The position numbers and the translations under genes were made by a program. DNA of 35,728 bases, from the IMG/VR virus record IMGVR_UViG_3300045988_069534, one strand, 5' to 3'. Source of the stretch: a virus. Position 1 is the stretch's first letter, and every line of letters begins with the position of its first letter. Positions 4,066 to 35,711 of the stretch are shown here, piece by piece. The notes under the pieces are model-generated. The model was not told the DNA's origin. It ran no database searches and worked only from the letters and a program-made list of their open reading frames with translations.

Positions 4066-4250
4066 TGTCCTTTTTCACCTTCTTTCATGCTTTCGATCAG
4101 CTGTTCAAGATCTTGTATGTTCCCATGTGTGCCGCATCCTTCGCACCTGTCCGCTGGTGCGTTTCTGTCCGGGCAGCTTTCGCAAGTTTCTTCTTCCTGT
4201 TCCAGCTGCTCCAGTAGTTCTTCAAAGTCTTTCTGCTGTGGTTCTGTCAT
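4062..4250 (-). CDS. small acidic Cys-rich protein (62 aa; CESC...CEGC)
   Basis: Internal ATG at 4250 with AAAGGAGAAA 7 nt upstream and an ATGA overlap with the stop of 4247..4387. The longer ORF-track form lacks an RBS. Confidence 0.6.
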   Translation of the reverse strand: MTEPQQKDFEELLEQLEQEEETCESCPDRNAPADRCEGCGTHGNIQDLEQLIESMKEGEKGQ

Positions 4251-4387
4251 TGTGTTTTTCTCCTTTTCTTGTTTTTCCGCTTCTTTTTTCCGTCGTTGTT
4301 GTTTCTTTGGCTTAAAATGCAGCCTGCACATATTGATAAACCTGTGAACACTGCGGCTTCTATTGCAATTATTCCGCATGCAGCCAT
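4247..4387 (-). CDS. small membrane protein with poly-basic tail (46 aa)
   Basis: Translation MAACGIIAIEAAVFTGLSICAGCILSQRNNNDGKKKRKNKKRRKTQ. GAAGGAA lies 11 nt upstream. Its stop is coupled (ATGA) to the next gene. The longer 88-aa form overlaps 4404..4598 and has no RBS. Confidence 0.4.
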   Translation of the reverse strand: MAACGIIAIEAAVFTGLSICAGCILSQRNNNDGKKKRKNKKRRKTQ

Positions 4388-5527: not shown

Positions 5528-6352
5528 TTATTTCCTTCCTGCTGCCTTTTGCAGCTTTTCTGTGATTTCTACTTCCCCAGTCTCCAGATTCAGCAAATAA
5601 CTTTCTGATTCATCCTGCTTCCGGTATCTTCCGTCATAGATTAGCGTGTATGTGAAGTACATAAAGCCTGTTACTTCGTGCCATGCTTCCCGTATGCTGT
5701 CTTTGTCCAGATACCAGCCCGAAGGAACCTTGACAATGTGGTTAAATGCGTTTCTGGAAGAAACTGTCTTTTTCTGTGGCTCCGGGATCACAAGATTCTT
5801 GCTGCTGTTGTATCTTCTGCCCGTGAACCCTTCACATGTTTTCATGGTTTTTTCAGAGTATTTCACAAAGTATTCTGCAAGTCGCCTGTATTGCCCGTTG
5901 TCGTCCATGGGCTTTATTGTGATCCAGCCCTTGTCCCAGCACTTTTTCAATAGCTGTGTGTCTATGGCGTTCAGCGTCATGTGGATATGTACTGCCCCGC
6001 GTTCCCCTACTTCTGGAACCCAGACGATCTTTGCTTCCTTCCCAGCTTTCTTGTATATCCGGCGAATGTTCCGCAGCAGCTTGTCAACGTCTGTCCGCAG
6101 TGCTTCTTTTGTGGCTGGTCGGTTCTCCTTCATGTATTCCCATGTGATGTACAGTGATGTTCCGTCGTAGTTCGCATTGAGGATCCACGTCAGCTTCTTC
6201 ACTGCCTGTCTGCTGTTTACCTTCTTCTGTGCTTCACAGGTCTTGTTTTCCTTCTGTCTTCTGCTCCCTTCCTTTGTGTCGGTTCTGACTGCATAATAAA
6301 ACGTGTGCTGCTTTGTCTTTCCTGCTCTGCATATTTCATGTTTGTACGGCAT
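5528..6352 (-). CDS. HUH-type rolling-circle replication initiator (Rep_1 / phiX174 gpA-like motifs)
   Basis: Motif order is SLYITWEY (motif 1-like), AVHIHMTL (HUH), then AEYFVKYSEK (YxxKY tyrosine motif). ATG 6352 is preceded by AGGGGGGA. The ORF-track TTG start at 6394 is less likely. Confidence 0.6.
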   Translation of the reverse strand: MPYKHEICRAGKTKQHTFYYAVRTDTKEGSRRQKENKTCEAQKKVNSRQAVKKLTWILNANYDGTSLYITWEYMKENRPATKEALRTDVDKLLRNIRRIYKKAGKEAKIVWVPEVGERGAVHIHMTLNAIDTQLLKKCWDKGWITIKPMDDNGQYRRLAEYFVKYSEKTMKTCEGFTGRRYNSSKNLVIPEPQKKTVSSRNAFNHIVKVPSGWYLDKDSIREAWHEVTGFMYFTYTLIYDGRYRKQDESESYLLNLETGEVEITEKLQKAAGRK

Positions 6353-6396
6353 TACTGATCCCCCTGTTTGTCGTTGGAATAATAAACTTATCAAGT

Positions 6397-6420
6397 GTGA
6401 AAAGCGGCTGTAATGCCGCT
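6397..6420 (-). terminator. stem-loop plus short U-run just upstream of the rep RBS (possible attenuator)
   Basis: AGCGGC (6403..6408), 6-nt loop, GCCGCT (6415..6420). On the minus strand it is followed by TTTTCAC. Lies about 50 nt upstream of ATG 6352. Confidence 0.4.
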
Positions 6421-6426
6421 ATTTTC

Positions 6427-6455
6427 TTGACTTTTTCGCCGTACAATGCTATACT
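6427..6455 (+). promoter_or_regulatory. near-consensus sigma70-type promoter on the plus strand (antisense to the rep leader)
   Basis: TTGACT (6427..6432), 17-bp spacer, TGc-TATACT (6447..6455). Confidence 0.55.
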
Positions 6456-6461
6456 TTTATT

Positions 6462-6534
6462 AACGTTTTATTTTTATATTGTTTGTACGGTTCGCCGCTC
6501 GGAATTGCAGTTCCGGGCGGCGTTCTTCTTTTCC
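6462..6534 (+). ncRNA. predicted ~70-nt antisense small RNA (countertranscript candidate)
   Basis: Starts about 7 nt after the -10 element. Ends in a 12-bp hairpin, CGCCGCUCGGAA (6493..6504) / UUCCGGGCGGCG (6511..6522). The hairpin is perfect only in the plus-sense RNA (one G-U pair) and is followed by UUCUUCUUUUCC. No protein-like ORF. Confidence 0.4.
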
Positions 6535-8544: not shown

Positions 8545-9069
8545 TCAAATATCGCCATTCTTTGAAAGAATGTCGTAGATCTCCGCTTTCAGTCTTACGA
8601 TCTCCAGCTTTGATTCTTCCAGCTGCTCCGTGGCGGTTCTGACCTGTTCTTGCAGGCTTTCTTCTGTCTCCCGCCAGATCACAGTTTCTTTGCTGTATTC
8701 TTCTTCCTGCTCCAGCATTGTTTCTCTCTGTTGTTGCAGATCATTTGCAAGGTTTCTGTTTTGCTGCTCCAGCTTTTCGATCCGCTGCCGCAGTTCGCGT
8801 GCGTTTTCTGTGTTTCCCGGTTCCTGCATGAATACGTTGTAAACGTCCAGCAGCTTGTCAACTCCCAGCACGTCTGCGATCATCTGTGCTGTGGTTGTCC
8901 TGCTATGCTCGAACATGACTTTGAAAGCTGGCGGCGTAAGTCTCCGCAAGTAGCTTTCAAGCGCATTCACTGAATGTCTGTCGGTTGTTCCTTGTGTTTT
9001 GTAGTTATCAACGACCATCTGCAAGCAGTCGTTCGTTGTTCCCCATCCTTCTTTTTCCCATACAGCCAT
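8545..9069 (-). CDS. hypothetical coiled-coil protein (174 aa)
   Basis: ATG 9069 with AAAGGAAGGAAAG upstream. The C-terminal half has heptad-like, Q/E/L-rich sequence. Confidence 0.7.
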   Translation of the reverse strand: MAVWEKEGWGTTNDCLQMVVDNYKTQGTTDRHSVNALESYLRRLTPPAFKVMFEHSRTTTAQMIADVLGVDKLLDVYNVFMQEPGNTENARELRQRIEKLEQQNRNLANDLQQQRETMLEQEEEYSKETVIWRETEESLQEQVRTATEQLEESKLEIVRLKAEIYDILSKNGDI

Positions 9070-9091
9070 TTGCTTTCCTTCCTTTCTGTGC

Positions 9092-9385
9092 TTAGATGTG
9101 GATTGTATAATAAAGCGTTGATTGCAGATCCGCGAAGTAATAGTCCGGCGTTTCATCCGGTTTCAGCGGTGATGCAAGCCCGCGTTTCTTCCGGTCCTTG
9201 TGCCGCAGTTCCGGCACTGCTCTGAATTTCTTTACTTCGCAGCTTCCGAAGGTATCTTGCAGCTGCTTTTCTGAATCCAGCTTGTATGCTCCGACATAGC
9301 CGACAAAAAGGTCTTTTCCGTCCTTTACGATCCGCAGCCTGTCGGACGGCTCAATCAGCTGCAATATATCGTCTACTGTTGTCAT
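9092..9385 (-). CDS. hypothetical protein (97 aa)
   Basis: ATG 9385 forms an ATGA overlap with the upstream stop at 9382. Confidence 0.7.
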   Translation of the reverse strand: MTTVDDILQLIEPSDRLRIVKDGKDLFVGYVGAYKLDSEKQLQDTFGSCEVKKFRAVPELRHKDRKKRGLASPLKPDETPDYYFADLQSTLYYTIHI

Positions 9386-9792
9386 GCGTTTTCTTCTTTC
9401 GCAAGTTCTTTCAGTACTTCAACGTTCTGCTTTTCCAGAAGTGTTTCAGCCTTCACAAACGCTTTGAATGCTTTTATTGTCAGCTTGTACGATTTTTTCT
9501 TTTCTTTTTCTTTTAATCTCTCAATGATGCCTTTTTCTATTGCGCGCTTCGCCACATACTTTATACATTCAATTTCTTTTTCTTCTCGCAGTATCTCGTC
9601 GTCGCAAATCAAAGCAGTGTCGCAACTCATTATTGCGATCCCGTTTCTCGGATCAATTATGTATACAGTCTGGTCTGCGCTCACATAACTATAAAATTTT
9701 CTTGTTGCAATTTCCAGTTCGTACCCGCATTCCTTCCGTACACCTTTTACGCCTTTTTGTTGCTGTAGTGTGTAAAATATTTTCTTTTCCAT
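9382..9792 (-). CDS. hypothetical protein (136 aa)
   Basis: ATG 9792 with AGGGGGG upstream, 10 nt after the previous stop. The longer ORF-track form overlaps 9803..10018. Confidence 0.7.
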   Translation of the reverse strand: MEKKIFYTLQQQKGVKGVRKECGYELEIATRKFYSYVSADQTVYIIDPRNGIAIMSCDTALICDDEILREEKEIECIKYVAKRAIEKGIIERLKEKEKKKSYKLTIKAFKAFVKAETLLEKQNVEVLKELAKEENA

Positions 9793-9802
9793 TTTTGCCC
9801 CC

Positions 9803-10018
9803 CTATATCCCGGATCTGATCTGCTCCAGTTCTGCTGCCACATCAGCGCCGCTGTACTCTGCCAGCAGCTTTTCGCTGATCTGATACGTCCATTTTGTTG
9901 ACATTTTCAGCGCCGTTCCTATCGGCAGGATCCCGCGCTGCATCCCGATTCTGACGAACTGATCCGAAACGTGAAGCAGTGCTGCTGCTTCTGTTACCTT
10001 GATTTTTCCTGCTGTCAT
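9803..10018 (-). CDS. small HTH DNA-binding protein (excisionase/AlpA-like pattern)
   Basis: VTEAAALLHVSDQFVRIGMQRGILPIG resembles Xis/MerR-type HTH. Preceded by the conserved early-gene box. Confidence 0.55.
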   Translation of the reverse strand: MTAGKIKVTEAAALLHVSDQFVRIGMQRGILPIGTALKMSTKWTYQISEKLLAEYSGADVAAELEQIRSGI

Positions 10019-10027
10019 GTGTCTTCG

Positions 10028-10045
10028 CTCCTTTCGTCGGTGTGT
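10028..10045 (-). repeat. early-gene box copy 5 (ACACACCGACGAAAGGAG, minus sense)
   Basis: The minus strand reads TTAAACACACCGACGAAAGGAGCGAAGACAC-ATG(10018). Confidence 0.8.
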
Positions 10046-10870
10046 TTAATCTTCCCAGATCTCATTCGCTTCTTTTTCGCAATTCCTATCTATGAAATAC
10101 TGGTACAAAAATTCCTTCTGTGCTTTTGTATACCTCTTTCCCGGTGAAGTTGTCGGGATCGCGATTCCCTGCGACGGGTTATGCAGCAGCACCCAGCCGC
10201 GATCTGTCAGAAAATCGCCGTATGAAATGTATTTTCGTGCTTCCTGCTGCTTTTCTTCGTGTTCGTCGCCGTAAAACTCCGCGACGTGATCTGCCGCCCA
10301 TTCTCCGTGCATCCCGAATTCTACCGGGTGAAAAGTTCCGTTCGGCTCCAGCCACCCGTAATCGTCGTCGGTTCCTGTCTCCATGCGTTTTATGAAAGAA
10401 TCAAGAAGGGCGCTTCCGGTGCTTTCGCTTTCTTCTTCCATGTTGGCAAATAACTTTTCGCCCGTTTCTTCCCTGTACTGCTTCTGGGCTTCTCTCCTTT
10501 CCCAGCTTGACATGTAACCGCTTGCAACAAATCCCAGCTTTTCTTCTACTTGGTGCAGTTCCTTTTCTGCCTGTTCCGCTCTTTCGTGCAGCTTTTCAAG
10601 TGTTTTTGCAACGTTCCACCGTTCGTCCCTCTGATCAAGATAATGGAATCTGTAATCGTCGCCCGGATATGTCCCCGTTATCTCTGCGCGTCCGTCCAGT
10701 ATTGCAAAAGCCAGCCCCTTTCTTTCGTTGTCCGTGATCTCGTCGGATTCAAGGCAGCTTTCCAGAAGGTTTATTGCATATTCCATCTTCCCTTCATAGT
10801 GGCACTTCTCCCGCGCCAGCCGTGTGATAAAATCACCGTTTATGCTGAATGTCATTGTTCTTTCTTCCAT
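10046..10870 (-). CDS. hypothetical protein (274 aa, acidic)
   Basis: ATG 10870 is preceded by the conserved box, which includes GAAGGGAG. Protein-like composition. Confidence 0.75.
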   Translation of the reverse strand: MEERTMTFSINGDFITRLAREKCHYEGKMEYAINLLESCLESDEITDNERKGLAFAILDGRAEITGTYPGDDYRFHYLDQRDERWNVAKTLEKLHERAEQAEKELHQVEEKLGFVASGYMSSWERREAQKQYREETGEKLFANMEEESESTGSALLDSFIKRMETGTDDDYGWLEPNGTFHPVEFGMHGEWAADHVAEFYGDEHEEKQQEARKYISYGDFLTDRGWVLLHNPSQGIAIPTTSPGKRYTKAQKEFLYQYFIDRNCEKEANEIWED

Positions 10871-11166
10871 GTGTCTTCGCTCCCTTCGTCGGTGTGTGCG
10901 TTTCTCTCTGCTATGGTCAAATACTTGTCGTCGATCAGCTGATCTATGTCGATCAGATTCTGTCTGAACTGTTCTTCCTTTATATGTCGCCAGATCGTGT
11001 GCCTGCTGCCTATGTACATCAGCGATTGAAAAACATCTGTCAGCGTGTATTTTTCAAAAGGTCTGCTGCCGTCCTTAGCTATGTACTGCTGATAATTCGG
11101 CAATAACTCCCGCAGGGCTGCTTCTTCTTTCTCTGTCAAGTCATATTTGACCGTGTACTGTGTCAT
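10852..11166 (-). CDS. hypothetical protein (104 aa)
   Basis: ATG 11166 is preceded by a variant of the box. The 3' end overlaps the next gene by 19 nt. Confidence 0.7.
   Translation of the reverse strand: MTQYTVKYDLTEKEEAALRELLPNYQQYIAKDGSRPFEKYTLTDVFQSLMYIGSRHTIWRHIKEEQFRQNLIDIDQLIDDKYLTIAERNAHTDEGSEDTWKKEQ
10880..10898 (-). repeat. early-gene box copy 4 (CACACACCGACGAAGGGAG)
   Basis: The minus strand reads GCACACACCGACGAAGGGAGCGAAGACAC-ATG(10870). It lies inside the 3' coding end of 10852..11166. Confidence 0.8.
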
Positions 11167-11173
11167 GTCGTGT

Positions 11174-11193
11174 CTCCTTTCTTCGGTGTGTGG
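11174..11193 (-). repeat. early-gene box copy 3, variant (CCACACACCGAAGAAAGGAG)
   Basis: The minus strand reads AACCACACACCGAAGAAAGGAGACACGAC-ATG(11166). Confidence 0.7.
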
Positions 11194-11212
11194 TTATTTT
11201 CTCTTTATTTTC

Positions 11213-11241
11213 TTTATTTTTTTATTTGTTTCTGATATAAT
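11213..11241 (+). promoter_or_regulatory. extended -10 promoter candidate for the plus-strand unit
   Basis: TGaTATAAT at 11233..11241, with a weak -35 (TTTATT) 17 bp upstream in an AT-rich tract. Confidence 0.4.
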
Positions 11242-11275
11242 ATGTTTGTCGCCTTACGAAAGGATGTGATCGCGT

Positions 11276-11458
11276 ATGGTAATAGACAATATTGTATTTT
11301 CGGAAGAAATGAGCGCCGCAACCTTGACGGTTGCTATGCTCCCTTATCTTTCCTTTGAATATGAAAAAGCCTACAATACCGCCGATCTGCTGGAAATCGC
11401 TGTCAGAATATACAATGATATTCTTGATCGCTTTTCCGGCGTGAATTCTCAAAAATAG
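11276..11458 (+). CDS. small hypothetical protein (60 aa), the only plus-strand ORF inside the early region
   Basis: ATG with GAAAGGA 11 nt upstream. Balanced composition (MVIDNIVFSEEMSAATLTVAMLPYLSFEYEKAYNTADLLEIAVRIYNDILDRF...). Flanked by a promoter and a terminator on the same strand. Confidence 0.4.
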   Translation: MVIDNIVFSEEMSAATLTVAMLPYLSFEYEKAYNTADLLEIAVRIYNDILDRFSGVNSQK

Positions 11459-11481
11459 CCGCAAACTATTTTTTTTGATCC

Positions 11482-11530
11482 ACAAACCGACGAAGTATAC
11501 AACCGACGAAAATACACATCCCGACGAAAC
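11482..11530 (+). repeat. three tandem plus-sense copies of the box core (ACA..CCGACGAA)
   Basis: CCGACGAA occurs at 11487..11494, 11503..11510 and 11521..11528 (offsets 16 and 18 nt). Copy 1, CACAAACCGACGAAG, differs from the box by 1 nt. Confidence 0.75.
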
Positions 11531-11576
11531 TTTGCTGCTTATGCAGCACCACTAAATACAGGCGACATTCTATGGC

Positions 11577-11610
11577 AAGCGTTGTGTGTCCAGCACAGCG
11601 CTTGTTTTTA
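11577..11610 (+). terminator. plus-strand intrinsic terminator closing the small plus unit
   Basis: 10-bp stem AAGCGUUGUG (11577..11586) / CACAGCGCUU (11594..11603), including one G-U pair, followed by GUUUUUA. Confidence 0.5.
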
Positions 11611-11844
11611 TGTAAGTTCTACGAAGTAGTTGTCTTCTGTCTCTCTTCCTAAATCCTTGAAAAATGCGTAGCGGTTGCCGTTGTATTCTTCCAGAATCCC
11701 GTAAAATTCGATCTTTGCTCTGAATGCTCCGCGCTGCTGCACTGCTTCGTCGATATTTTCCAGCGTTGTGATTGTTCCCCATACGCTGCCGCACGTCACA
11801 TCATTTATACAATCAAGGCTGTATCTTCCTTTACTCTGCAACAT
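11608..11844 (-). CDS. hypothetical protein (78 aa)
   Basis: ATG 11844 is preceded by the conserved box. Overlaps the upstream gene by 14 nt. Confidence 0.7.
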   Translation of the reverse strand: MLQSKGRYSLDCINDVTCGSVWGTITTLENIDEAVQQRGAFRAKIEFYGILEEYNGNRYAFFKDLGRETEDNYFVELT

Positions 11845-12397
11845 TTTTTCTTTCTCCCTTCGTCGGTGTGTAGTCTTTCATCTCTACTGGTTCTTCGCTT
11901 GCGTCTTCCCCGGTTGCGTAGTTCTTGTCTGACGGGAAAGTGGTATATTGTCCCGTGTATATGCCGTACATCCCGGAACCACCCGAACTAAATCTGAACC
12001 ATGCCGGGCGCTTGCACAGTACGCGTTTTATTCCTATGCGTGCAAGTCCTTTTTCAGTGGTTGCCTGTGTCCATTTTACTGTACCGTCCGGCATTTCTAC
12101 GCGAAGTTTGCTTGTCTTTCCATATCCCGTGAAGGATCTGCACTGACACCACTTTGCATTCACTAGCACGCCGTCAAGCGTTGCGTATTCTACAAACCAG
12201 TCAAAGCCGCCGTTCTGGATCAGCTTTATTTTGTCCCTTGCAAGATCTCTTCCGCGTTCTTCCACTCTCATTGATACGAAGCAATCTTCTTGATCTGTTT
12301 CGCCATTGTTTATCCTGTCCCAACGGCGCGACATTTGATTTTCGTATCTTTCGATCTCTGCTTCAAGTTCCCGGATCAATTCTTCCCCATACTTCAT
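11831..12397 (-). CDS. hypothetical protein (188 aa)
   Basis: ATG 12397 is preceded by the conserved box. First gene after the cro-like gene. Confidence 0.75.
   Translation of the reverse strand: MKYGEELIRELEAEIERYENQMSRRWDRINNGETDQEDCFVSMRVEERGRDLARDKIKLIQNGGFDWFVEYATLDGVLVNAKWCQCRSFTGYGKTSKLRVEMPDGTVKWTQATTEKGLARIGIKRVLCKRPAWFRFSSGGSGMYGIYTGQYTTFPSDKNYATGEDASEEPVEMKDYTPTKGERKNVAE
11854..11872 (-). repeat. early-gene box copy 2 (TACACACCGACGAAGGGAG)
   Basis: The minus strand reads GACTACACACCGACGAAGGGAGAAAGAAAAA-ATG(11844). It lies in the coding 3' end of 11831..12397, in a different frame from copy 4. Confidence 0.8.
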
Positions 12398-12406
12398 GTT
12401 TTCTTT

Positions 12407-12428
12407 CTCTCCTTCGTCGGTGTGTGTG
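12407..12428 (-). repeat. early-gene box copy 1 (CACACACACCGACGAAGGAGAG)
   Basis: The minus strand reads ATCACACACACCGACGAAGGAGAGAAAGAAAAC-ATG(12397). Confidence 0.8.
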
Positions 12429-12436
12429 ATGTTGGT

Positions 12437-12679
12437 TTATACCAGCTGTGCTGCCTTGTCCTGCTCCCAGATTCCCGCTTCTGCTGCTATTGCATCCGGG
12501 TTCGCTCCCATGGCTTTGCAGATTTCGTAGTATTCTGTAACTTCTATTTTTCTTTTTTCATTGAGCATAGCCCCCAGAATCTGCGGTCTGATTCCTGCTT
12601 TATCGGACACGAACTGCTGCTTGATTCCGTGGCGCTTCATGTATGTTTTCAATGTGTTTCCCATGGTTTTGTTTGCCAT
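12437..12679 (-). CDS. Cro-like XRE-family HTH regulator (80 aa)
   Basis: HTH_3 pattern (LKTYMKRHGIKQQFVSDKAGIRPQILGAMLNEKRKI). Divergent from the repressor gene. RBS AAAGGAGAAA. Confidence 0.85.
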   Translation of the reverse strand: MANKTMGNTLKTYMKRHGIKQQFVSDKAGIRPQILGAMLNEKRKIEVTEYYEICKAMGANPDAIAAEAGIWEQDKAAQLV

Positions 12680-12699
12680 TCCGTTTTTCTCCTTTCATG

Positions 12700-12773
12700 T
12701 ACTGCATTTCTGTATATTTGCATGATAATACTGCAATACAGTTTTGTCAATACTTTTTTACTGTTTTTCTGTA
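12700..12773. promoter_or_regulatory. three operator-like sites in the divergent switch region
   Basis: TACTGCATTTCTGTA (12700..12714), TACTGCAATACAGT (12729..12742) and TACTGTTTTTCTGTA (12759..12773). The half-sites TACTG/CAGTA-like are inverted. Site starts are 29-30 bp apart. Confidence 0.55.
12722..12750 (-). promoter_or_regulatory. early lytic (PR-like) promoter
   Basis: Minus strand has TTGACA (12750..12745), a 17-bp spacer, then TATCAT (12727..12722). Operator site 2 lies in the spacer. Confidence 0.6.
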
Positions 12774-12781
12774 CTTTTTTA

Positions 12782-12810
12782 TTGAAAGTCTTGTTTTGCT
12801 GTGGTAATAT
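12782..12810 (+). promoter_or_regulatory. repressor-gene promoter
   Basis: TTGAAA (12782..12787), 17-bp spacer, TGg-TAATAT (12802..12810). Lies 28 nt upstream of ATG 12839. Confidence 0.6.
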
Positions 12811-12838
12811 ACATTTAAAGAAAGGCGGTAACACATAA

Positions 12839-13213
12839 ATGACAATACAAACAGAGAAGAAAATAAAAGAGAATATCCAGAAAAACCTTGTATTCTATAG
12901 AAAAAAATTGAAGATAACCCAGCGGCAACTTGCTGATTATTTAGAAACTGGCGTTTCTACTGTTTCCGGCTGGGAACGTGGCGCATACACTCCAGACATT
13001 GACACGTTATTTGCAATTTGCAAACTGTTTCATATAGGTTTGAATGATATGTGTGGAATATCTGCTGATAACTCCCCACTTACCGACGACGAAAACGACC
13101 TTCTGAATACATACAAGATTCTGAATGACGCAGGACGTCAAAAGCTGTTAGAACGTGCTGTAGAACTCCGGGATCTGGGGTATGTAAAAGGGGCCGCAGA
13201 AAAAATGGCATAA
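12839..13213 (+). CDS. CI-like XRE-family repressor (124 aa, no S24 peptidase domain)
   Basis: HTH_3 pattern (LVFYRKKLKITQRQLADYLETGVSTVSGWERGAYTPDIDTLFAICKLF). Divergent from the cro-like gene. Confidence 0.88.
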   Translation: MTIQTEKKIKENIQKNLVFYRKKLKITQRQLADYLETGVSTVSGWERGAYTPDIDTLFAICKLFHIGLNDMCGISADNSPLTDDENDLLNTYKILNDAGRQKLLERAVELRDLGYVKGAAEKMA

Positions 13214-13275
13214 AGTACCAGAAAAATGGAAAAGTTATACATATTGATTTTCATACATAGAAAGGAAGATGCGAC

Positions 13276-13821
13276 TTGAAAAAATTTTTACTTTATTTCT
13301 TTGGTATCTGTTGCGTAATTTCAAGTGTTGTCGGTTTTATACAATATGGAATTCTAAATGGTGTCACTTGTTTGATCATAGGCGTTGTGCTTATCTCATT
13401 AGCCCGCCAGCCCAGTGATCCTGCTGCTGTAGATTCTCCCGAAGCTGTGCAGCCACAATCGCAGCCGCAGCGAACAAAGACCATCACTTTTGATGTTGCT
13501 GGTGTCACTTTCAACAACGAAAGTGGGCGGCTTCGCTCCAGACAAACGATATTGAAAAAAATTTCCTTTTGTGATCCACCGTTTGATTCTGGATATGCCG
13601 CACGTCTTGAAAGGTATTTATATAATGATGAACCCGCCTATTATGTATATGTGAATGATTATATAGTCGGCAACGTTCCGAAAGGTTTTATTCCTTACTT
13701 GGAGAAAAACGCCGGGCGTCCTTATATCGTGGAATATTTCAAAGTACACGGCGGCGGCAAGAAAAAATATTATGGTGCTGAAATGAGAATAAAATATACA
13801 GATATAGAAGGTGAAGAATAA
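13276..13821 (+). CDS. membrane-anchored HIRAN-like domain protein (181 aa)
   Basis: TTG start with AGAAAGGAAG 7 nt upstream. N-terminal TM region (LLYFFGICCVISSVVGFIQYGILNGVTCLIIGVVLISL). The C-terminal region fits the HIRAN pattern (FDVAGVTF...RQTIL...LERYLYNDEPAYYVYVNDYIVGNVPKGFIPYLEKN...). Confidence 0.65.
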   Translation: MKKFLLYFFGICCVISSVVGFIQYGILNGVTCLIIGVVLISLARQPSDPAAVDSPEAVQPQSQPQRTKTITFDVAGVTFNNESGRLRSRQTILKKISFCDPPFDSGYAARLERYLYNDEPAYYVYVNDYIVGNVPKGFIPYLEKNAGRPYIVEYFKVHGGGKKKYYGAEMRIKYTDIEGEE

Positions 13822-13976
13822 TGAAGAAGAAAAAATCATTGATCAAAGGACTTTCGTTCAGTCCCAGCCGGGCGCTTGGTATCTCGCAGGCAAAAGTGAA
13901 AGTTGCAAAGGCAACCGGGATCCCGACTAATAAAGCCGGGCGTCAACGGAAAGCTGGCAAAATGCTTGGTCTGTAA
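13821..13976 (+). CDS. small basic protein (51 aa)
   Basis: ATG overlaps the upstream stop (TAATG). Translation MKKKKSLIKGLSFSPSRALGISQAKVKVAKATGIPTNKAGRQRKAGKMLGL. Below the ORF-track cutoff. Confidence 0.35.
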   Translation: MKKKKSLIKGLSFSPSRALGISQAKVKVAKATGIPTNKAGRQRKAGKMLGL

Positions 13977-14074
13977 CTACATAAGAAAACCGCCCCGGTG
14001 CTGGTAACACTTGGGCGGCTGCAATCTCCGATTGATCGGGCTTGCTATTTAATTCTCGCAAAATTATTATAGCA

Positions 14075-14118
14075 AAAGCCCTTCAATAAAGCAACGGAAA
14101 AGGGGCTTTTATTTTTTG
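14075..14118 (+). terminator. possible terminator between the moron genes and int
   Basis: AAAGCCC (14075..14081) pairs with GGGCTTT (14103..14109) across a 21-nt loop, followed by TATTTTTT. Confidence 0.35.
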
Positions 14119-14158
14119 CGCCTTTTTTCCGGTAATATACAGAAAGAAGGTGCTTTTT

Positions 14159-15253
14159 ATGGCAATGAAAAGAGCAAACGGCGACGGATCCGTCTTCAAA
14201 CTCACCGGGAAACGTCGCAAACCATGGGCTGCACGAATTACAATCGGCTGGCGTCTCGATCCTGCGTCCGGGAAGCTGACGCAGGAATACCAGCTGATCG
14301 GAACCTTTGCAACCCGGATCGAAGCTGAAACGGCTTTGAACGATTTCTTGCAGAATCCCTATGACATCAACGCACACAAGCTGACGTTTTCCGAAGTGTA
14401 CGACCTCTGGTCAAAGGAATACTACGCCACCTTGAAGAACGATTCCAGCGCCCGCAGCTACCGGGCGGCATACAAATACTGCGAACCGATCTTCAATGTC
14501 CGAATGCGTGATCTTCGCGTCTCCCACATGCAGGGCGTGATCAGTGACGCTGTTGTCGGTGATGCAACAAAAAGCCGCATGAAGTCGCTTTTCAATCTCA
14601 TGTACAAATACTGCATGATCCATGAAATTGTTGACAAGGACTACAGCGCACTATTTGTTCAAAAAGCAGGCAAACGTGACAAGGCTAAGCGTGTACCGTT
14701 CAAAAATAGCGAAGTGCAGCGCCTGTGGAAGATCCGCAGCTTTGGTGTTACGGACATGATTCTATTTTCCATGTACACGGGCTTTCGCCCTTCGGAAGTG
14801 TTGCTGATCGAAACTGTAAACGTGGATCTTGTGCGCTGGAGAATCAAAGGCGGCATCAAAACGGACGCCGGGATCGACCGGAGCGTCCCGGTGCATCCAT
14901 TGATCCGTCAGCTGGTACAGGATCACTATAACCCAGATAGCAAATACCTGTTCCCGAATGAGACTGGCGGCTTTATGACATACGATCAATACCGTGGGCG
15001 CTTCAAAAAGGTTATGCGCTATCTTGGGATCTCCCACACGCCGCATGAGCCGCGGCATACATTTATTTCATGTGCAAAGCATTTCAAGGTGAATGAAAAC
15101 TTGCTGAAAGCTATTGTCGGACATAAGATCAGAGACATAACAGAAGCCGTCTACACTCACAGGGCGTACAGCGATTATGAAGAAGCTGTGGCAATGATCA
15201 GCTATGATGGTGAAGACATAGAATTTGAATCAATCGACGCTGAATGGGATTGA
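14159..15253 (+). CDS. int: tyrosine recombinase / phage integrase
   Basis: C-terminal catalytic pattern (HEPRHTFIS...IVGHKIRDITEAVYTHR). N-terminal arm-binding-like NGDGSVFKL...RKPWAARI. ATG 14159 lies 6 nt after AGAAGGTG; the ORF-track GTG start at 14150 is inside the RBS. Confidence 0.93.
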   Translation: MAMKRANGDGSVFKLTGKRRKPWAARITIGWRLDPASGKLTQEYQLIGTFATRIEAETALNDFLQNPYDINAHKLTFSEVYDLWSKEYYATLKNDSSARSYRAAYKYCEPIFNVRMRDLRVSHMQGVISDAVVGDATKSRMKSLFNLMYKYCMIHEIVDKDYSALFVQKAGKRDKAKRVPFKNSEVQRLWKIRSFGVTDMILFSMYTGFRPSEVLLIETVNVDLVRWRIKGGIKTDAGIDRSVPVHPLIRQLVQDHYNPDSKYLFPNETGGFMTYDQYRGRFKKVMRYLGISHTPHEPRHTFISCAKHFKVNENLLKAIVGHKIRDITEAVYTHRAYSDYEEAVAMISYDGEDIEFESIDAEWD

Positions 15254-15276
15254 CGCCCGATCAGCTGCATACAGAA

Positions 15277-15310
15277 AGCCCCCAGATCAATTTCTGGGGG
15301 CTTAATTGTT
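15277..15310 (+). terminator. intrinsic terminator after int
   Basis: 10-bp stem AGCCCCCAGA (15277..15286) / TCTGGGGGCT (15293..15302), followed by TAATTGTTT. Confidence 0.7.
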
Positions 15311-15537
15311 TGTGTATTACCGCTGTTTATTACCTGTGTATTTCCCGTGTACTATGTGTACGTTTTCATGGGTTTTCATAGGTTTTGCCGCGGCGCAGAA
15401 CCCGCATAAATACTGGATTCTTTAGAATTTCCCTGCTTCGGCTGCTTCCTCAACGGAAGCTGTCGCATGCTGTTTTTCTGGGTTTTTCGCGCCTTTTGTG
15501 TATTGCGCGTTGTTTATGTTCCGGTGTTACCCGGTTT
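15303..15537. other. probable attP region (non-coding, between int and the endolysin stop)
   Basis: 235 bp with no credible ORF. Short direct repeats: TGTGTATT three times, TATTACC twice, GTTTTCAT twice at 10-bp phasing. Small hairpin GCTTCC-TCAAC-GGAAGC at about 15444..15460. The core cannot be defined without a host site. Confidence 0.35.
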
Positions 15538-16476
15538 TCAAAGGGCTTTCACAGCCGCGATCAGAGCCGCACGCGTCTTCTTTCCGCATTTCTTGTCCGG
15601 TTCCTTGGTGCTGTACGTTTCCTTGTGTGCTGTCTGGAATGCCACCAGTGCTGCTTCTGTTCTCTTGCCGAAGGATCCGTCAAGATTGCTTTTTCCTTCT
15701 GCGGTGTGCGATTTCAGAACGCCTACTTTGATCAAGTGCCACTGTAACCATTTTACATATTCCACCTTCTGTGCCAGTCTTCCCCGGTACAGTGTATATG
15801 TCGGTTCTGCATACGGCGTGCTGTAGTCCTTCGGGGCTTCGTTCTGCTCCAGATCTTCGTAGATCAGATCGAGGTCAACGCTTGTGCTGATTCCGTCCAC
15901 GCGTCCTGTTGAAGAATACTGCCATCCGAAAAGTTCCTGTGTGATCTGCGGCTTGTATTTATCGTTCGGCGTGTCTTCCAGCTGCATTTCCTTTTTTGAC
16001 GGATAGCGTGCCACCCAGAATCTACAGGAAAACGCTGTCGGATCCAGTACGTTTTTGTACCAGTCCACATTGCAGTAAATACCGAATTCATACCCGGCGG
16101 CTTCTATGATCACTTTAGCAACTTTTATAAGTGCTGTCAACTTCTCTTTTCCCAGCTGGCGCAGCGTCTTGTCTTCCATGTCCCACCAGACTGTGCAGTC
16201 CTCGACGCCGCATGATTTCAGCAGATCAACGACCTGCTGTGCTTCCGTCTTCTGTTTTTCCGGTGTGGTTCCGTAGCTGTACTTGTAGACGTCAAACGGA
16301 ATCCCCTGCGCCCTAACTCCAGCCAGATTGTTGTGAAACTGATAGTCTGTTTTCCCGGATCCTCTGACCGAACGCAGTACAGCGAAGGCGACGCCCGCCG
16401 CCTTCACCTTCCCCCAGTCGATCACTTTCTGATTGTCCGAAACGTCAATCCCTCTTCTGGTTCTCTGTACTGTCAT
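15538..16476 (-). CDS. endolysin: GH25 muramidase plus C-terminal PG_binding_1 domain
   Basis: GIDVSDNQKVIDWGKVKAAGVAFAVLRS matches the GH25 N-terminus. C-terminal YVKWLQWHLIKVGVL...DGSFGKRTEAALVAFQ matches PG_binding_1. ATG 16476 with GGAAGGAGAA 8 nt upstream is preferred over ATG 16503. Confidence 0.92.
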   Translation of the reverse strand: MTVQRTRRGIDVSDNQKVIDWGKVKAAGVAFAVLRSVRGSGKTDYQFHNNLAGVRAQGIPFDVYKYSYGTTPEKQKTEAQQVVDLLKSCGVEDCTVWWDMEDKTLRQLGKEKLTALIKVAKVIIEAAGYEFGIYCNVDWYKNVLDPTAFSCRFWVARYPSKKEMQLEDTPNDKYKPQITQELFGWQYSSTGRVDGISTSVDLDLIYEDLEQNEAPKDYSTPYAEPTYTLYRGRLAQKVEYVKWLQWHLIKVGVLKSHTAEGKSNLDGSFGKRTEAALVAFQTAHKETYSTKEPDKKCGKKTRAALIAAVKAL

Positions 16477-26289: not shown

Positions 26290-26930
26290 TTACCTCGGCT
26301 TTCCGAAAAGATCACGCAGCCGCTTTCTGTCTGGCTCTGTCTGCATCAGTGTTCTTGCGTTCTCCAGATACTCGCGCCCCTCTTCCGAATGATTGCACGA
26401 ATGTATAAAAGCGTCCCGCCTGTACTGCAAATAGTCGATATACTCCAGTTCTTCAATTTCATTCATATTCAGTCCTGTGTACTCATGTACTAAATGTTCC
26501 CAGTACGTCGGGATTTCAAAGAAGTCTTCTTCATCCGTCGGATAGAAGGGCGGGTTTAGTTTGGGTCTGTGTCCGGGATCTTTACGAAACGCACATACTG
26601 TGCGAAGAATGCTTTCATGTCCTCAATGTCCATGTTTTCTTCTACCCAGTCTTTGCTGATCGCTTCGCCATTCAGATTGTTGGAAAGAATCTTTGCAGTC
26701 AGTGTGTACAATTCTTCTATTGTACGCCTGTTTGCTCCGCTTCTTTCCTTTGCGTTCTGCGCTTCTTCTCTTTCTGTGATCGTGTCCTGCATGTCCATAA
26801 GTGCGTCAAAAACCTTCTTTTTCGGCATTCCGACGACAATTACCTTGACGCCCTTTTCGCTTTTGGGATCATCAAAGGTCAATGTCATGTAGTTACGCTT
26901 TACTTTTTGAAAATTTACTGATAAATCCAT
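26290..26930 (-). CDS. tail assembly chaperone G-T fusion via -1 programmed frameshift
   Basis: The -1 frame stays open for 89 codons, from the slippery site to TAA at 26290..26292, just before the tape measure ATG. It encodes LNPPFYPTDEEDFFEIPTYWEHLVHEYTGL... Confidence 0.7.
26556..26930 (-). CDS. tail assembly chaperone (gpG-like, 124 aa)
   Basis: Lies between the major tail and tape measure genes. Acidic. RBS AAAGGAAGGAAAG. Confidence 0.8.
   Translation of the reverse strand: MDLSVNFQKVKRNYMTLTFDDPKSEKGVKVIVVGMPKKKVFDALMDMQDTITEREEAQNAKERSGANRRTIEELYTLTAKILSNNLNGEAISKDWVEENMDIEDMKAFFAQYVRFVKIPDTDPN
26559..26565 (-). promoter_or_regulatory. -1 slippery heptamer C CCA AAC immediately before the gpG stop
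   Basis: The minus strand reads ACA GAC CCA AAC TAA, matching X XXY YYZ = C CCA AAC. Confidence 0.75.
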
Positions 26931-26953
26931 TCTGCTTTCCTTCCTTTCGATTC

Positions 26954-34690: not shown

Positions 34691-35047
34691 TCACCAGCGT
34701 TCTTCGTTTGTGAAATGTTTCTTTTCACTGGTGATACGTTTGTCTGGGTGCTGTTCGTTGTGGCATGCTTCACACAATGGGATCAAGTTCTGATACACTA
34801 CGCCGTTGTAGGTGTACGTCCTCGACATAGCAAGTCGCGGGTGTTTCCTTACCCACTGCACATGATGGACGCTGCGCGCTCTGGTGTGGATGCCTTTCTT
34901 TTTACAGAACTGACATTCATAATTGTTTTCTTTCATCACCTGTGCGGACAGTTCCCGCCACTCATGCCACTTGTAAAACTTATATAATTTATTTTCTTTT
35001 ATCAGCTGTTTGATCCATGCTTCCAGCTGGTCTTCTGTTATCGTCAT
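34691..35047 (-). CDS. HNH endonuclease (terminase-associated)
   Basis: CQFCKKKG...HHVQWVRKHP...NLIPLCEACHNEQH. ATG 35047 with AAAGGA 8 nt upstream. Lies directly upstream of terS, as in HK97-like cos phages. Confidence 0.88.
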   Translation of the reverse strand: MTITEDQLEAWIKQLIKENKLYKFYKWHEWRELSAQVMKENNYECQFCKKKGIHTRARSVHHVQWVRKHPRLAMSRTYTYNGVVYQNLIPLCEACHNEQHPDKRITSEKKHFTNEERW

Positions 35048-35114
35048 GTCGAATGTCCTTTCGTGATACGGTGCAAGCGGCGACGCCTGCACCGATCGAA
35101 GGAAAGCTGCAAAC

Positions 35115-35160
35115 AAAAAAGACACACTGCACAAACCTTTTCGTTGTCTGTGCGTGTGTC
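35115..35160 (-). terminator. strong intrinsic terminator between ssb and the late operon
   Basis: Minus-sense RNA GACACACGCACAGAC...GUUUGUGCAGUGUGUC forms about 15 bp with one bulge (35121..35160), followed by UUUUUUGUUU (35120..35111). Confidence 0.7.
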
Positions 35161-35180
35161 TTTGTCTTGTTTACTGGCTT

Positions 35181-35209
35181 ATTATACCACTCTGTACGTT
35201 TTATTGCAA
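35181..35209 (-). promoter_or_regulatory. near-consensus extended -10 promoter firing into the terminator
   Basis: Minus strand has TTGCAA (35209..35204), a 17-bp spacer, then TGgTATAAT (35189..35181). Confidence 0.6.
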
Positions 35210-35282
35210 TTTCTTTTTCCTGCCGCCTGTGCGGCTCTGTGGCGTCTCCAGCGTTGCTTTATTGTGCGCCTGCTCCCACCTT

Positions 35283-35711
35283 TTACGAAAACGGTAGTTC
35301 TTCGTCTATTCCTTCCGGTATGTTCATAAAACCGTTTGCGTCTGTCTCCGGCTGTGCTGGCGCTTGCTGGTTTCCCTGCTGCCCTGCTGCCGCTTTGCTT
35401 TCTGCAAACTCCCATTCCTCGACAATGACGTCTGTTGTGTATACTTTGCCGCCGTCTTTGTTGGTATAGCTGCCCGTCTGTATTCGACCGGAAATTTCCA
35501 GCTTTGTTCCTTTCTTGCAATACTTTTCCAGACTTTCCGCACTCTTCCCGAATGCTACGCATGATATGAAGTCTGCGCCTGCATCCTTCTTCCGTCTGTT
35601 CACCGCCAGTGTGAAGCGTACAATGCAGATCTGTTCCTGTGATTCCTGCCCGTTCGTCCAGCGTGATTGTGGGTCCTTCGTCAGTCTTCCTGTCAAATCA
35701 ACTTTGTTCAT
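35283..35711 (-). CDS. ssb: single-stranded DNA-binding protein with acidic C-terminal tip
   Basis: MNKVDLTGRLTKDP...FTLAVNRRKKDAGADFISCVAFGKSAESLEKYCKKGTKLEISGRIQTGSYTNKDG... and C-terminal IDEELPFS. RBS GAGGGAAG. Its 5' end lies in the terminal overlap. Confidence 0.93.
   Translation of the reverse strand: MNKVDLTGRLTKDPQSRWTNGQESQEQICIVRFTLAVNRRKKDAGADFISCVAFGKSAESLEKYCKKGTKLEISGRIQTGSYTNKDGGKVYTTDVIVEEWEFAESKAAAGQQGNQQAPAQPETDANGFMNIPEGIDEELPFS

Follow-up and report, generated by a model that had tools for sequence, protein, structure and literature searches.

A plus-strand unit inside the early operon of a temperate phage probably encodes a structured RNA with repeats that resemble early-gene start regions

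We analysed a 35,728-nucleotide stretch of virus DNA (IMG/VR record IMGVR_UViG_3300045988_069534; hereafter the window), which is a temperate siphophage-like genome. Within its minus-strand early operon lies a unit (11213-11610) whose elements are all on the plus strand. The analysis indicates that RNA is probably the main product of this unit (rough probability 0.65), and that the unit is most likely an RNA gene whose short reading frame is under weak constraint and may be regulatory. The evidence for this reading consists of conservation of the unit across four sequence types, excess folding that is specific to one strand, compensatory changes in helices, and conservation of the repeats at the nucleotide level. 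The divergent homologues of the unit are the main new result.

A preliminary description of the window had placed a promoter, an open reading frame (ORF) of 60 amino acids (aa), three repeats and a small hairpin in this unit, and all of them were found in those places. The terminator was also present where it had been described, but its stem has 13-14 pairs rather than 10. The elements are as follows.

11192-11232, plus strand: A/T-rich UP-like tract upstream of the -10 element, adjoining the start region of the opposite-strand 104-aa early gene
11233-11241, plus strand: extended -10 element TGATATAAT, read directly, with a predicted transcript start near 11248
11248-11275, plus strand: leader, with the 5' arm of the closing helix, GUCGCC(U), at 11248-11254
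11276-11458, plus strand: 60-codon reading frame, with doubtful or weak coding constraint
11451-11473, plus strand: A/U hairpin AAAAAUAG-loop-CUAUUUUU, overlapping the stop codon of the frame
11480-11495, 11499-11512 and 11514-11529, plus strand: three tandem repeat units with cores CCGACGAA at 11487, 11503 and 11521
11533-11548, plus strand: small hairpin UGCUGC-UUAU-GCAGCA (DNA TGCTGC-TTAT-GCAGCA)
11560-11566, plus strand: 3' arm of the closing helix (AGGCGAC), the predicted partner of the transcript 5' end
11574-11609, plus strand: intrinsic terminator, consisting of a stem-loop (11574-11606; 13-14 bp stem, 5-nt loop) and a T-run

The unit occupies a gap of 441 bp, the sole sizeable gap in the early operon, which agrees with the AT-rich gap of 440 bp described earlier (40.1% GC vs 47.1% for the whole window). 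Across the promoter tract (11192-11247), the GC content is 16%. The promoter and terminator predicted on the plus strand are consistent with the independent plus-strand transcription unit that had been proposed. In a consensus scan, no minus-strand promoter or terminator was found in the gap, and early transcripts must therefore cross the unit; the minus strand has no U-tract after the terminator hairpin. No CI/Cro-type operator was found near the unit promoter, suggesting that the unit is probably active in the lysogen too. The T-run of the terminator overlaps the stop codon of a convergent 78-aa gene. The repeat region is A/C-rich (A24 C17 G7 T6) and mostly unpaired in the predicted fold, with repeats 1 and 2 essentially unpaired. 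The Shine-Dalgarno-like site of the leader (GGAUGU, 11262-11267) is predicted to pair with ACAUCC (11516-11521) at the edge of repeat 3, both in the minimum free energy (MFE) fold and in the alignment fold. An Rfam cmscan search of window positions 9000-16000 and of four divergent loci, run at permissive E-values, returned nothing in the unit.

Divergent versions of the unit were reached via homologues of the convergent 78-aa gene (69-84% identity), and together with the window they form four sequence types.

Window type: the window and nine close variants
L228 type: L228 and L250
L222 type: L222, L223-225, L226-227 and L256-257
L252 type: L252

Common to all types are an A/T tract, an extended -10 element, a homologous AUG-ended leader and an intrinsic terminator. 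The homologous A/T tract (ATAAAGATTTTCTTTATTTTT...) stands at the equivalent place in every divergent homologue, TGTATAAT occupies the -10 position in the other sequence types, and the shared leader reads GAAAGGA..UGAUCGC..AUG. The core CGACGA(A/C/U) occurs two to three times in each unit homologue, with neighbouring copies about 16-19 nt apart. The repeat core was thus kept in every divergent homologue, and the possibility raised in the preliminary description, that the repeats are not conserved, fell away. The unit strand is always opposite to the early genes; the flanking gene pairs differ, and the start region of the next early gene always adjoins the unit. In L228 and L250, an equivalent of the small hairpin, with a different loop, lies directly 3' of the last repeat. 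Between repeats 1 and 2, the L222 type carries an inserted 20-nt hairpin that shows compensatory changes. When this hairpin is folded out, the usual repeat spacing is restored, which argues for recognition of RNA over duplex DNA. Repeat 2 of this type is the near-palindrome AATTCGACGAATT; in the predicted fold, the repeats of the L222 type are paired among themselves and with the leader.

A separate observation concerns L222 (about 4245-4330, plus strand) and the equivalent place in L256, where the early strand contains a frame of 27 codons, convergent with the unit, that would encode a hydrophobic peptide (MKEFDRLEAIFWIGITAVILIAAYFNK). Its stop codon touches the unit terminator, an arrangement that recalls 3'-overlapping type I toxin/antitoxin pairs.

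The repeat-bearing 3' domain is the most constrained part of the unit. Ten close variants (93-99% identity; IMG/VR, ENA and Logan) all carry the unit, and their variable columns number 20 in the 183-nt ORF compared with 1 in the 142 nt of 11466-11607 (Fisher p = 1.2e-4). The repeat array shows one substitution among the 10 variants. The -10 element is invariant among them, and the adjacent bases 11242 and 11245 are variable. The A/U hairpin keeps its stem, and its seven-base loop is swapped as a block in 4/10 variants. In L221, the terminator stem carries a compensatory U-A to C-G change, accompanied by a change in the loop. Two metagenome scans for further unit homologues returned nothing. 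In IMG/VR, the promoter pattern gave unrelated matches or only L256/L257, and the three-repeat pattern gave mostly coding repeats of unrelated viruses.

The predicted fold is much more stable than that of shuffled sequences. The plus strand from 11248 to the terminator folds at -112.7 kcal/mol (z = -6.9), compared with z = -5.1 for the minus strand. In a genome-wide scan of 194 windows of 365 nt tiled over both phage strands, the plus strand of the unit had the largest energy excess (-33.9 kcal/mol vs a mean of -5.6, sd 6.9). At the divergent loci, the sense/antisense z values were -6.5/-4.1, -5.7/-3.9, -6.1/-3.3 and -5.3/-2.0; the sense strand beat its shuffles in every type (z -5.3 to -6.9), and the consensus MFE was lower for the sense strand in both alignments. 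Under DNA parameters, the two strands no longer differed (z = -4.6 and -4.2). A closing helix between the 5' and 3' ends is predicted in all four types and is built of unrelated sequences (GUCGCC/GGCGAC in the window); its pairing was matched by shuffles in 10, 2, 4 and 2 of 100 for the four types. Pairing of the ribosome-binding site and fold-back of the 5' end onto the 3' region are also predicted in all four. The preliminary description had suggested looking for covariation in relatives; compensatory changes were seen in L221 and in the L222 type. Four L222-type sequences hold six compensatory pairs, located in two internal hairpins, the terminator and the long-range helix. Both internal hairpins fall inside the putative ORF, and the compensatory changes alter its amino acids. 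As a side result of the scan, other 365-nt segments folded far more stably than their shuffles: 34973-35337 on the minus strand (z = -8.1, the strongest in the genome), 26578-26942 on the plus strand (z = -6.1), 6138-6502 on the minus strand (z = -5.9) and 15263-15627 on the minus strand (z = -5.3).

The reading frame showed little sign of coding constraint. A word search of 5.8 billion proteins found homologues of the 60-aa product only at an identity of at least 90%, and neither Pfam nor PHROG gave a match for any ORF version. The variable columns of the ORF are distributed 7/6/5 over the three codon positions, compared with 48/33/129 in five neighbouring genes (binomial p = 0.004). Two insertions break the frame in L018, and a 32-nt deletion does so in L220. 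The frame breaks in L016 (ENA contig_4180, 96 kb) are uninformative because every L016 gene is broken; frame-breaking single-base indels occur in every gene compared, and L016 is probably an error-prone long-read assembly whose indels are not biology. The ratio of nonsynonymous to synonymous divergence (omega) was 0.26-0.54 for the ORF at a synonymous divergence (dS) of 0.12-0.54, compared with 0.09-0.22 at dS 0.6-1.36 for the neighbouring gene, so that the dS of the ORF is 2-4 times below that of the neighbour. Although the N-terminal codons are recognisable in the L222 type, the C-terminal halves are unrelated between types. The repeats are read as TTK / RR / TTT in the L222-type frame and as RRN / QRK / DDG in the L252-type frame. 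Because the frames cross the repeats differently in the two types, the motif is conserved as nucleotides. The 60-aa product of the window is acidic and lacks a membrane-spanning stretch, its hydrophobic runs being at most about 14 residues long. The L252 frame has a hydrophobic stretch of 22-24 aa followed by RLRRNYHRQRKN, and the L222-type frames are hydrophobic and then basic.

The repeats resemble a box, ACACACCGACGAAGGGAG, at the ribosome-binding sites of the first five early genes, which are consecutive after cro. The boxes read ACACACCGA(C/A)GAA(G/A)GGAG and lie 9-13 nt ahead of the ATG codons.

12408-12425, minus strand: box ahead of the ATG at 12397
11854-11871, minus strand: box ahead of the ATG at 11844
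11174-11191, minus strand: box ahead of the ATG at 11166
10880-10897, minus strand: box ahead of the ATG at 10870
10028-10045, minus strand: box ahead of the ATG at 10018

The pattern ACAC[AC]CCGA[AC]GAA occurs exactly five times in the window, always on the minus strand. For CCGACGAA, 7 matches were found in the window vs 1.19 expected, and 0/100 shuffles reached 7; three copies are the unit repeats on the plus strand, and the other four are on the minus strand, each in a ribosome-binding region. Repeat 1 is identical to the box at 15/16 nt, repeats 2 and 3 match it in a core of 8-9 nt and the upstream ACA, and GGAG is absent from all three. In the window's lineage, the five boxes and three repeats all read CCGACGAA, which bears out the earlier claim that the repeats carry the box core in the sense of the early mRNA. 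The orthologous start regions of other lineages lack CCGACGAA and read CACAUACGAA or CGACUACGAA. The start-region core common to the lineages is ACGAA(G/A)GGAG, preceded by CACA(U/C), CGACU or, in the window's lineage only, CACACCG. Since these box prefixes are lineage specific, conservation of the repeat core CGACGA(A) extends further across lineages than that of the box in its window form. The match score of the window repeats was 12.3 against their own boxes and 6.7-7.7 against foreign boxes; this preference was slight in the L222 group and reversed in L228 and L252, whose repeats matched the window's boxes better. Outside the window's lineage, boxes and repeats have only ACGAA(G) in common, and full identity is confined to that lineage. 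The match between boxes and repeats would fit a recognition factor common to both in one lineage, but falls short of establishing that the unit generally functions by mimicry.

The boxes themselves gave further observations. Those of the window's lineage have CCG before ACGAAGGGAG, and the orthologous starts in L222, L223, L226, L228, L252 and L256 have CAU, CAC or CGACU; judged by this comparison, five separate ribosome-binding regions have undergone a concerted change within the window's lineage. Among 185,579 species genomes, the box pattern gave single chance matches only. Pairing of the box extension with 16S rRNA was considered and rejected, since by inspection only GAA(G/A)GGAG fits the standard anti-Shine-Dalgarno tail, although the rRNA of the host may differ; the upstream CCGAC falls past the 3' end of the rRNA. 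An early-sense RNA across the gap would contain three anti-box copies, one of which is predicted in the window to pair with the box of the next gene. This cis pairing was rejected as a general mechanism, because it is not predicted in the L222, L226, L228 and L256 types.

The unit is dispensable, being absent or truncated in two relatives that keep the boxes. In the mosaic relative L006, four ordinary genes replace the immunity region, the 188- and 78-aa genes and the unit, boxes are kept at four genes, and homology to the window resumes exactly at 11210. Because L006 retains boxes without the unit, the unit is accessory to them. In L251, the unit is truncated and the boxes are kept; L251:2573-2817 is a deletion variant in which the tail of the last repeat and the terminator are left, fused to an antisense fragment of a 58-aa gene that is intact in L223. 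The distant relatives L009-L015, reached via a 274-aa protein, have neither box nor unit. Two places in L006 show mosaic boundaries at or near boxes. L006:2081-2111, compared with window 12395-12425, keeps the box as a 30-nt island amid non-homologous flanks, and another mosaic junction lies about 20 nt upstream of a box (L006:3663 = window 11210). Boxes may double as junctions for module exchange.

As to mechanism, the unit would produce an RNA of about 360 nt, tightly folded, from its own sigma-70/sigmaA-type extended -10 promoter and with its own intrinsic terminator. In this RNA, a closing helix would join the 5' end to the segment that immediately precedes the terminator, the leader with its Shine-Dalgarno-like site would be sequestered, and two to three CGACGA(A) repeats would be displayed in the A/C-rich 3' domain. 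Such an RNA would be fully complementary to about 360 nt of the early mRNA between the cro-proximal genes and the distal early genes, including those for replication. An active promoter would lead to convergent transcription and to a duplex of about 360 bp with early mRNA, and the cro-proximal genes would thereby be set apart from the distal early genes and those for replication. On this view, the unit would most probably act as a cis-antisense, convergent-transcription brake on the distal early operon, with a logic like that of lambda OOP RNA, and the repeat domain would add a second function in trans. Transcription of the unit, its pairing with early mRNA and its effect on early genes are deduced from the sequence, and we regard a structured RNA acting as a cis-antisense brake as a tentative proposal, with slightly less than an even chance of being correct. 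The readings considered here are not exclusive; a decoy for the boxes overlaps both the RNA-product and the antisense readings and may coexist with them.

Several points weigh against this account. The antisense mechanism leaves the strongest conservation, that of the repeats, unexplained, and the RNA overlaps no coding sequence except the stop codon of the 78-aa gene, unlike OOP. In the window's lineage, covariation was too sparse to be informative, with one compensatory pair and shuffle controls not exceeded. The set of homologues is small (10 close variants and 8 divergent sequences). The window frame (60 aa) shares 35% identity with the L228 frame (61 aa). Homology across types also extends over the AUG, the Shine-Dalgarno-like site and about 20 N-terminal codons; this homology of frame and leader may point to a small protein or a bifunctional RNA.

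The unit is part of a lysogeny and early region with the following genes.

12437-12679, minus strand: Cro-like gene, with a near-consensus promoter at 12722-12750
12839-13213, plus strand: CI-like repressor gene, facing the Cro-like gene
14150-15253, plus strand: integrase gene
5528-6394: gene for an HUH/rolling-circle initiator

Downstream of the Cro-like gene, the minus strand carries the early genes and, farther along, single-stranded DNA-binding protein (SSB)-like genes, a methylase gene and ParA/ParB-like genes; the phage encodes a second helix-turn-helix regulator in addition to the ParA/ParB-like proteins. The CI/Cro operators (12700-12773) read TACTG-N5-CWGT; no box was found in the CI/Cro intergenic region, and the operators there differ from the box in sequence. 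The convergent 78-aa gene (11608-11844, minus strand) is strongly conserved, with omega 0.09-0.22 at dS about 1 (0.6-1.36). Its product has no Pfam or PHROG family, and the AlphaFold2 model is beta-rich and of low confidence (predicted local distance difference test, pLDDT, 57). Among GenBank phages, no relative of the unit region or of the 78-aa protein was found. The terminase is nearest (52%) to those of human-faecal phages and a Clostridium scindens phage, and this sole pointer toward a host suggests a phage of gut Clostridia. In the relatives L222 (64-1074) and L223 (31-1041), a gene for a GGGtGRT-family protein lies beside the integrase, and several prophages are integrated there, which suggests a common attachment site in the host of these relatives.

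Among the rival explanations is the decoy that the preliminary description had proposed. In the form considered here, the repeats imitate the 5' half of the boxes (without GGAG) and would titrate a protein or RNA factor that recognises the boxes on early mRNAs, with consequences for how the box genes are translated or how stable their messages are. Part of that proposal stood, since the repeats have the sense orientation, are mostly free of predicted pairing in the window and form the most conserved part of the unit, and their core is kept in all types despite different reading frames. In the window's lineage, all eight copies read CCGACGAA, unlike the orthologous starts elsewhere, and the preference of the repeats for their own boxes is clear (12.3 vs 6.7-7.7), homogenisation by recombination being unlikely for repeats so short. 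The repeat spacing of 16-19 nt, which the L222 type keeps only with the inserted hairpin folded out, also argues for recognition of the repeats as RNA. The part that did not stand is its generality: full identity is limited to one lineage, the repeats of L228 and L252 fit the window's boxes better than their own, L222-type repeats are predicted to be paired with each other and the leader, and boxes persist in L006 and L251 without the full unit. In addition, no candidate factor was found (the neighbouring proteins are without family and the 78-aa model is poor), and three sites are few for a sponge. We consider the decoy rather unlikely. The same holds for its more elaborate form, a box regulon with a built-in titrator, in which the RNA would compete for a factor that reads boxes similar to mycobacteriophage start-associated sequences (SAS), and boxes and repeats would co-evolve within a lineage; this too seems rather improbable. 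A third explanation takes the unit as a small-protein moron, an mRNA for a protein of 47-62 aa, perhaps membrane-active or type I toxin-like in some lineages, whose fold keeps translation low. It would account for the conserved AUG, Shine-Dalgarno-like site and N-terminal codons, for the nearly equal length and 35% identity of the window and L228 frames, for omega below 1, and for the hydrophobic stretch and RLRRNYHRQRKN of L252 and the hydrophobic-then-basic frames of the L222 type; by analogy, the predicted fold-back and sequestered ribosome-binding site resemble the mRNAs of hok/fst-type toxins. The window's acidic product without a membrane-spanning stretch, the lack of codon-position bias, the frames broken in L018 and L220, the unrelated C-terminal halves and the repeats read in three different frames speak against it, as do the compensatory changes that alter amino acids inside the frame, the low dS, the failure of a consensus scan to find an antitoxin promoter on the other strand and the lack of a Pfam or PHROG match. 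On balance, a small protein as the main product is doubtful.

Explanations at the DNA level fared worse. The repeats and boxes could be asymmetric sites for a phage DNA-binding protein, stoperator-like or resembling an operator, iteron or centromere, and the preliminary description had offered an iteron or operator array as its alternative. All eight copies are in the sense of local transcription, as are stoperators (PMC9283540), the second helix-turn-helix regulator and the ParA/ParB-like proteins are possible binders, and repeat 2 of the L222 type is nearly palindromic. However, no copy lies at the early promoter, the CI/Cro operators differ in sequence, the repeat spacing of 16 and 18 bp is off helical phase, and each box is joined to a ribosome-binding site, 9-13 nt ahead of the ATG. 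The compensatory hairpin inserted between repeats in one lineage and the preference for the sense strand, which appears with RNA but not DNA parameters, also make this alternative less likely, and we judge it improbable. Even less credible is a single-strand origin for the rolling-circle Rep, in which the folded region, as single-stranded DNA, would prime lagging-strand synthesis. The phage does encode an HUH/rolling-circle initiator (5528-6394), and the region folds well with DNA parameters (z = -4.6 and -4.2). Single-strand origins are strand specific, whereas the fold as DNA shows no strand preference; the fold is framed by a canonical double-stranded promoter and a U-tract terminator, and the unit is dispensable in close relatives with the same downstream region. 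A type III toxin-antitoxin system, a retron and the template of a diversity-generating retroelement were rejected, because there is no adjacent toxin or reverse-transcriptase gene and the order of parts is wrong.

Annotation pipelines would label this unit a hypothetical 60-aa protein. To our knowledge, phage-encoded regulatory RNAs of gut Bacillota phages are almost uncharted. The units form a small family with a testable anatomy (promoter, leader, closing helix, repeat array and terminator) at a decision-relevant part of temperate phage genomes. If the RNA is only an OOP-like antisense brake, it would represent a new version of a classic device, far larger and found in a different phylum; if it acts on the boxes, it would give a simple genetic handle on the function of start-associated boxes.

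Comparison with known systems shows partial likeness to several of them. CsrB/RsmZ sponges and prophage anti-sRNAs such as AgvB carry repeats of a motif found at the ribosome-binding sites of their targets, the sponges having 7-22 copies. The unit RNA likewise repeats a motif that is also found at ribosome-binding sites, but the CsrB/RsmZ likeness put forward in the preliminary description is one of logic alone: unlike those sponges, the unit has no GGA motifs, its three sites lie in an A/C-rich stretch predicted to be unpaired, and they are not presented in hairpin loops. Family searches of the phage proteins gave no match to a CsrA/RsmA-type partner. In the immunity RNAs of P1/P7 (c4) and P4 (CI), short repeated stretches of a phage RNA are complementary to start regions that belong to that same early transcript. 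The early-sense gap RNA of the window is similar in its three anti-box copies and one predicted pairing; unlike c4/CI RNAs, this pairing is predicted in the window's lineage only, and the RNA framed by a promoter and a terminator is that of the sense-box strand. Fold-back of the 5' end to the 3' end with a sequestered ribosome-binding site is a hallmark of hok- and fst-type toxin mRNAs. With the class of type I toxin mRNAs (PMC3919570), the unit shares a short frame, a stable predicted fold in which the 5' end pairs near the 3' end and the ribosome-binding site is sequestered, and a prophage setting. The window frame differs from them in being acidic and without a membrane segment, although the L252 frame would qualify, and the frames are not homologous over their full length between types. 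A consensus scan found no antitoxin promoter in the gap, and the only foreseeable antisense RNA is read-through of the early operon.

The stoperators of Cluster A mycobacteriophages share the operator sequence at the early promoter and bind the immunity repressor (PMC9283540). Boxes and repeats resemble them as numerous short asymmetric sites oriented with local transcription; unlike stoperators, the boxes are unrelated to the CI/Cro operators and fused to ribosome-binding sites. The SAS of Cluster K mycobacteriophages also have orphan reverse copies, and their function was left open (PMC3203893; still open in PMC12699233). Like SAS (PMC3203893; PMC12699233), the boxes are asymmetric, have a Shine-Dalgarno core just upstream of the ATG, keep one orientation and precede non-structural genes of unrelated families. 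They differ in consensus (GGGATAGGAGCCC for SAS, with up to 2 mismatches, vs ACACACCGACGAAGGGAG for the boxes and the core ACGAAGGGAG in relatives), in host phylum and in the box extension 5' of the Shine-Dalgarno core, and the reverse copies here stand three in tandem, lack a Shine-Dalgarno core and lie inside a dedicated transcription unit. Judged by these sequence features, the boxes are analogues rather than members of SAS. The titrator reading, if true, would be the first functional handle on start-associated sequences, which have been without a known function since 2011.

Lambda OOP RNA is a short antisense transcript that lies within the rightward early operon (PMC5869508). Like OOP, the unit has its own promoter and terminator and runs against the early operon one or two genes downstream of cro, so placed that its RNA could pair with early mRNA and its transcription could collide with that of the early genes. 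OOP is 77 nt long, overlaps the 3' end of cII and acts through RNase III-dependent cleavage. Unlike OOP, the unit RNA would be about 360 nt long, with a long-range closing helix, a repeat array and a conserved AUG-led frame, and the unit is intergenic, touching only the stop codon of the 78-aa gene; the two have no sequence relationship. Overall, the unit lacks the defining features of CsrB/RsmZ sponges and stoperators and has some of those of OOP-type RNAs and type I toxin mRNAs, and its most suitable place is among phage-encoded regulatory RNAs, as a new variant.

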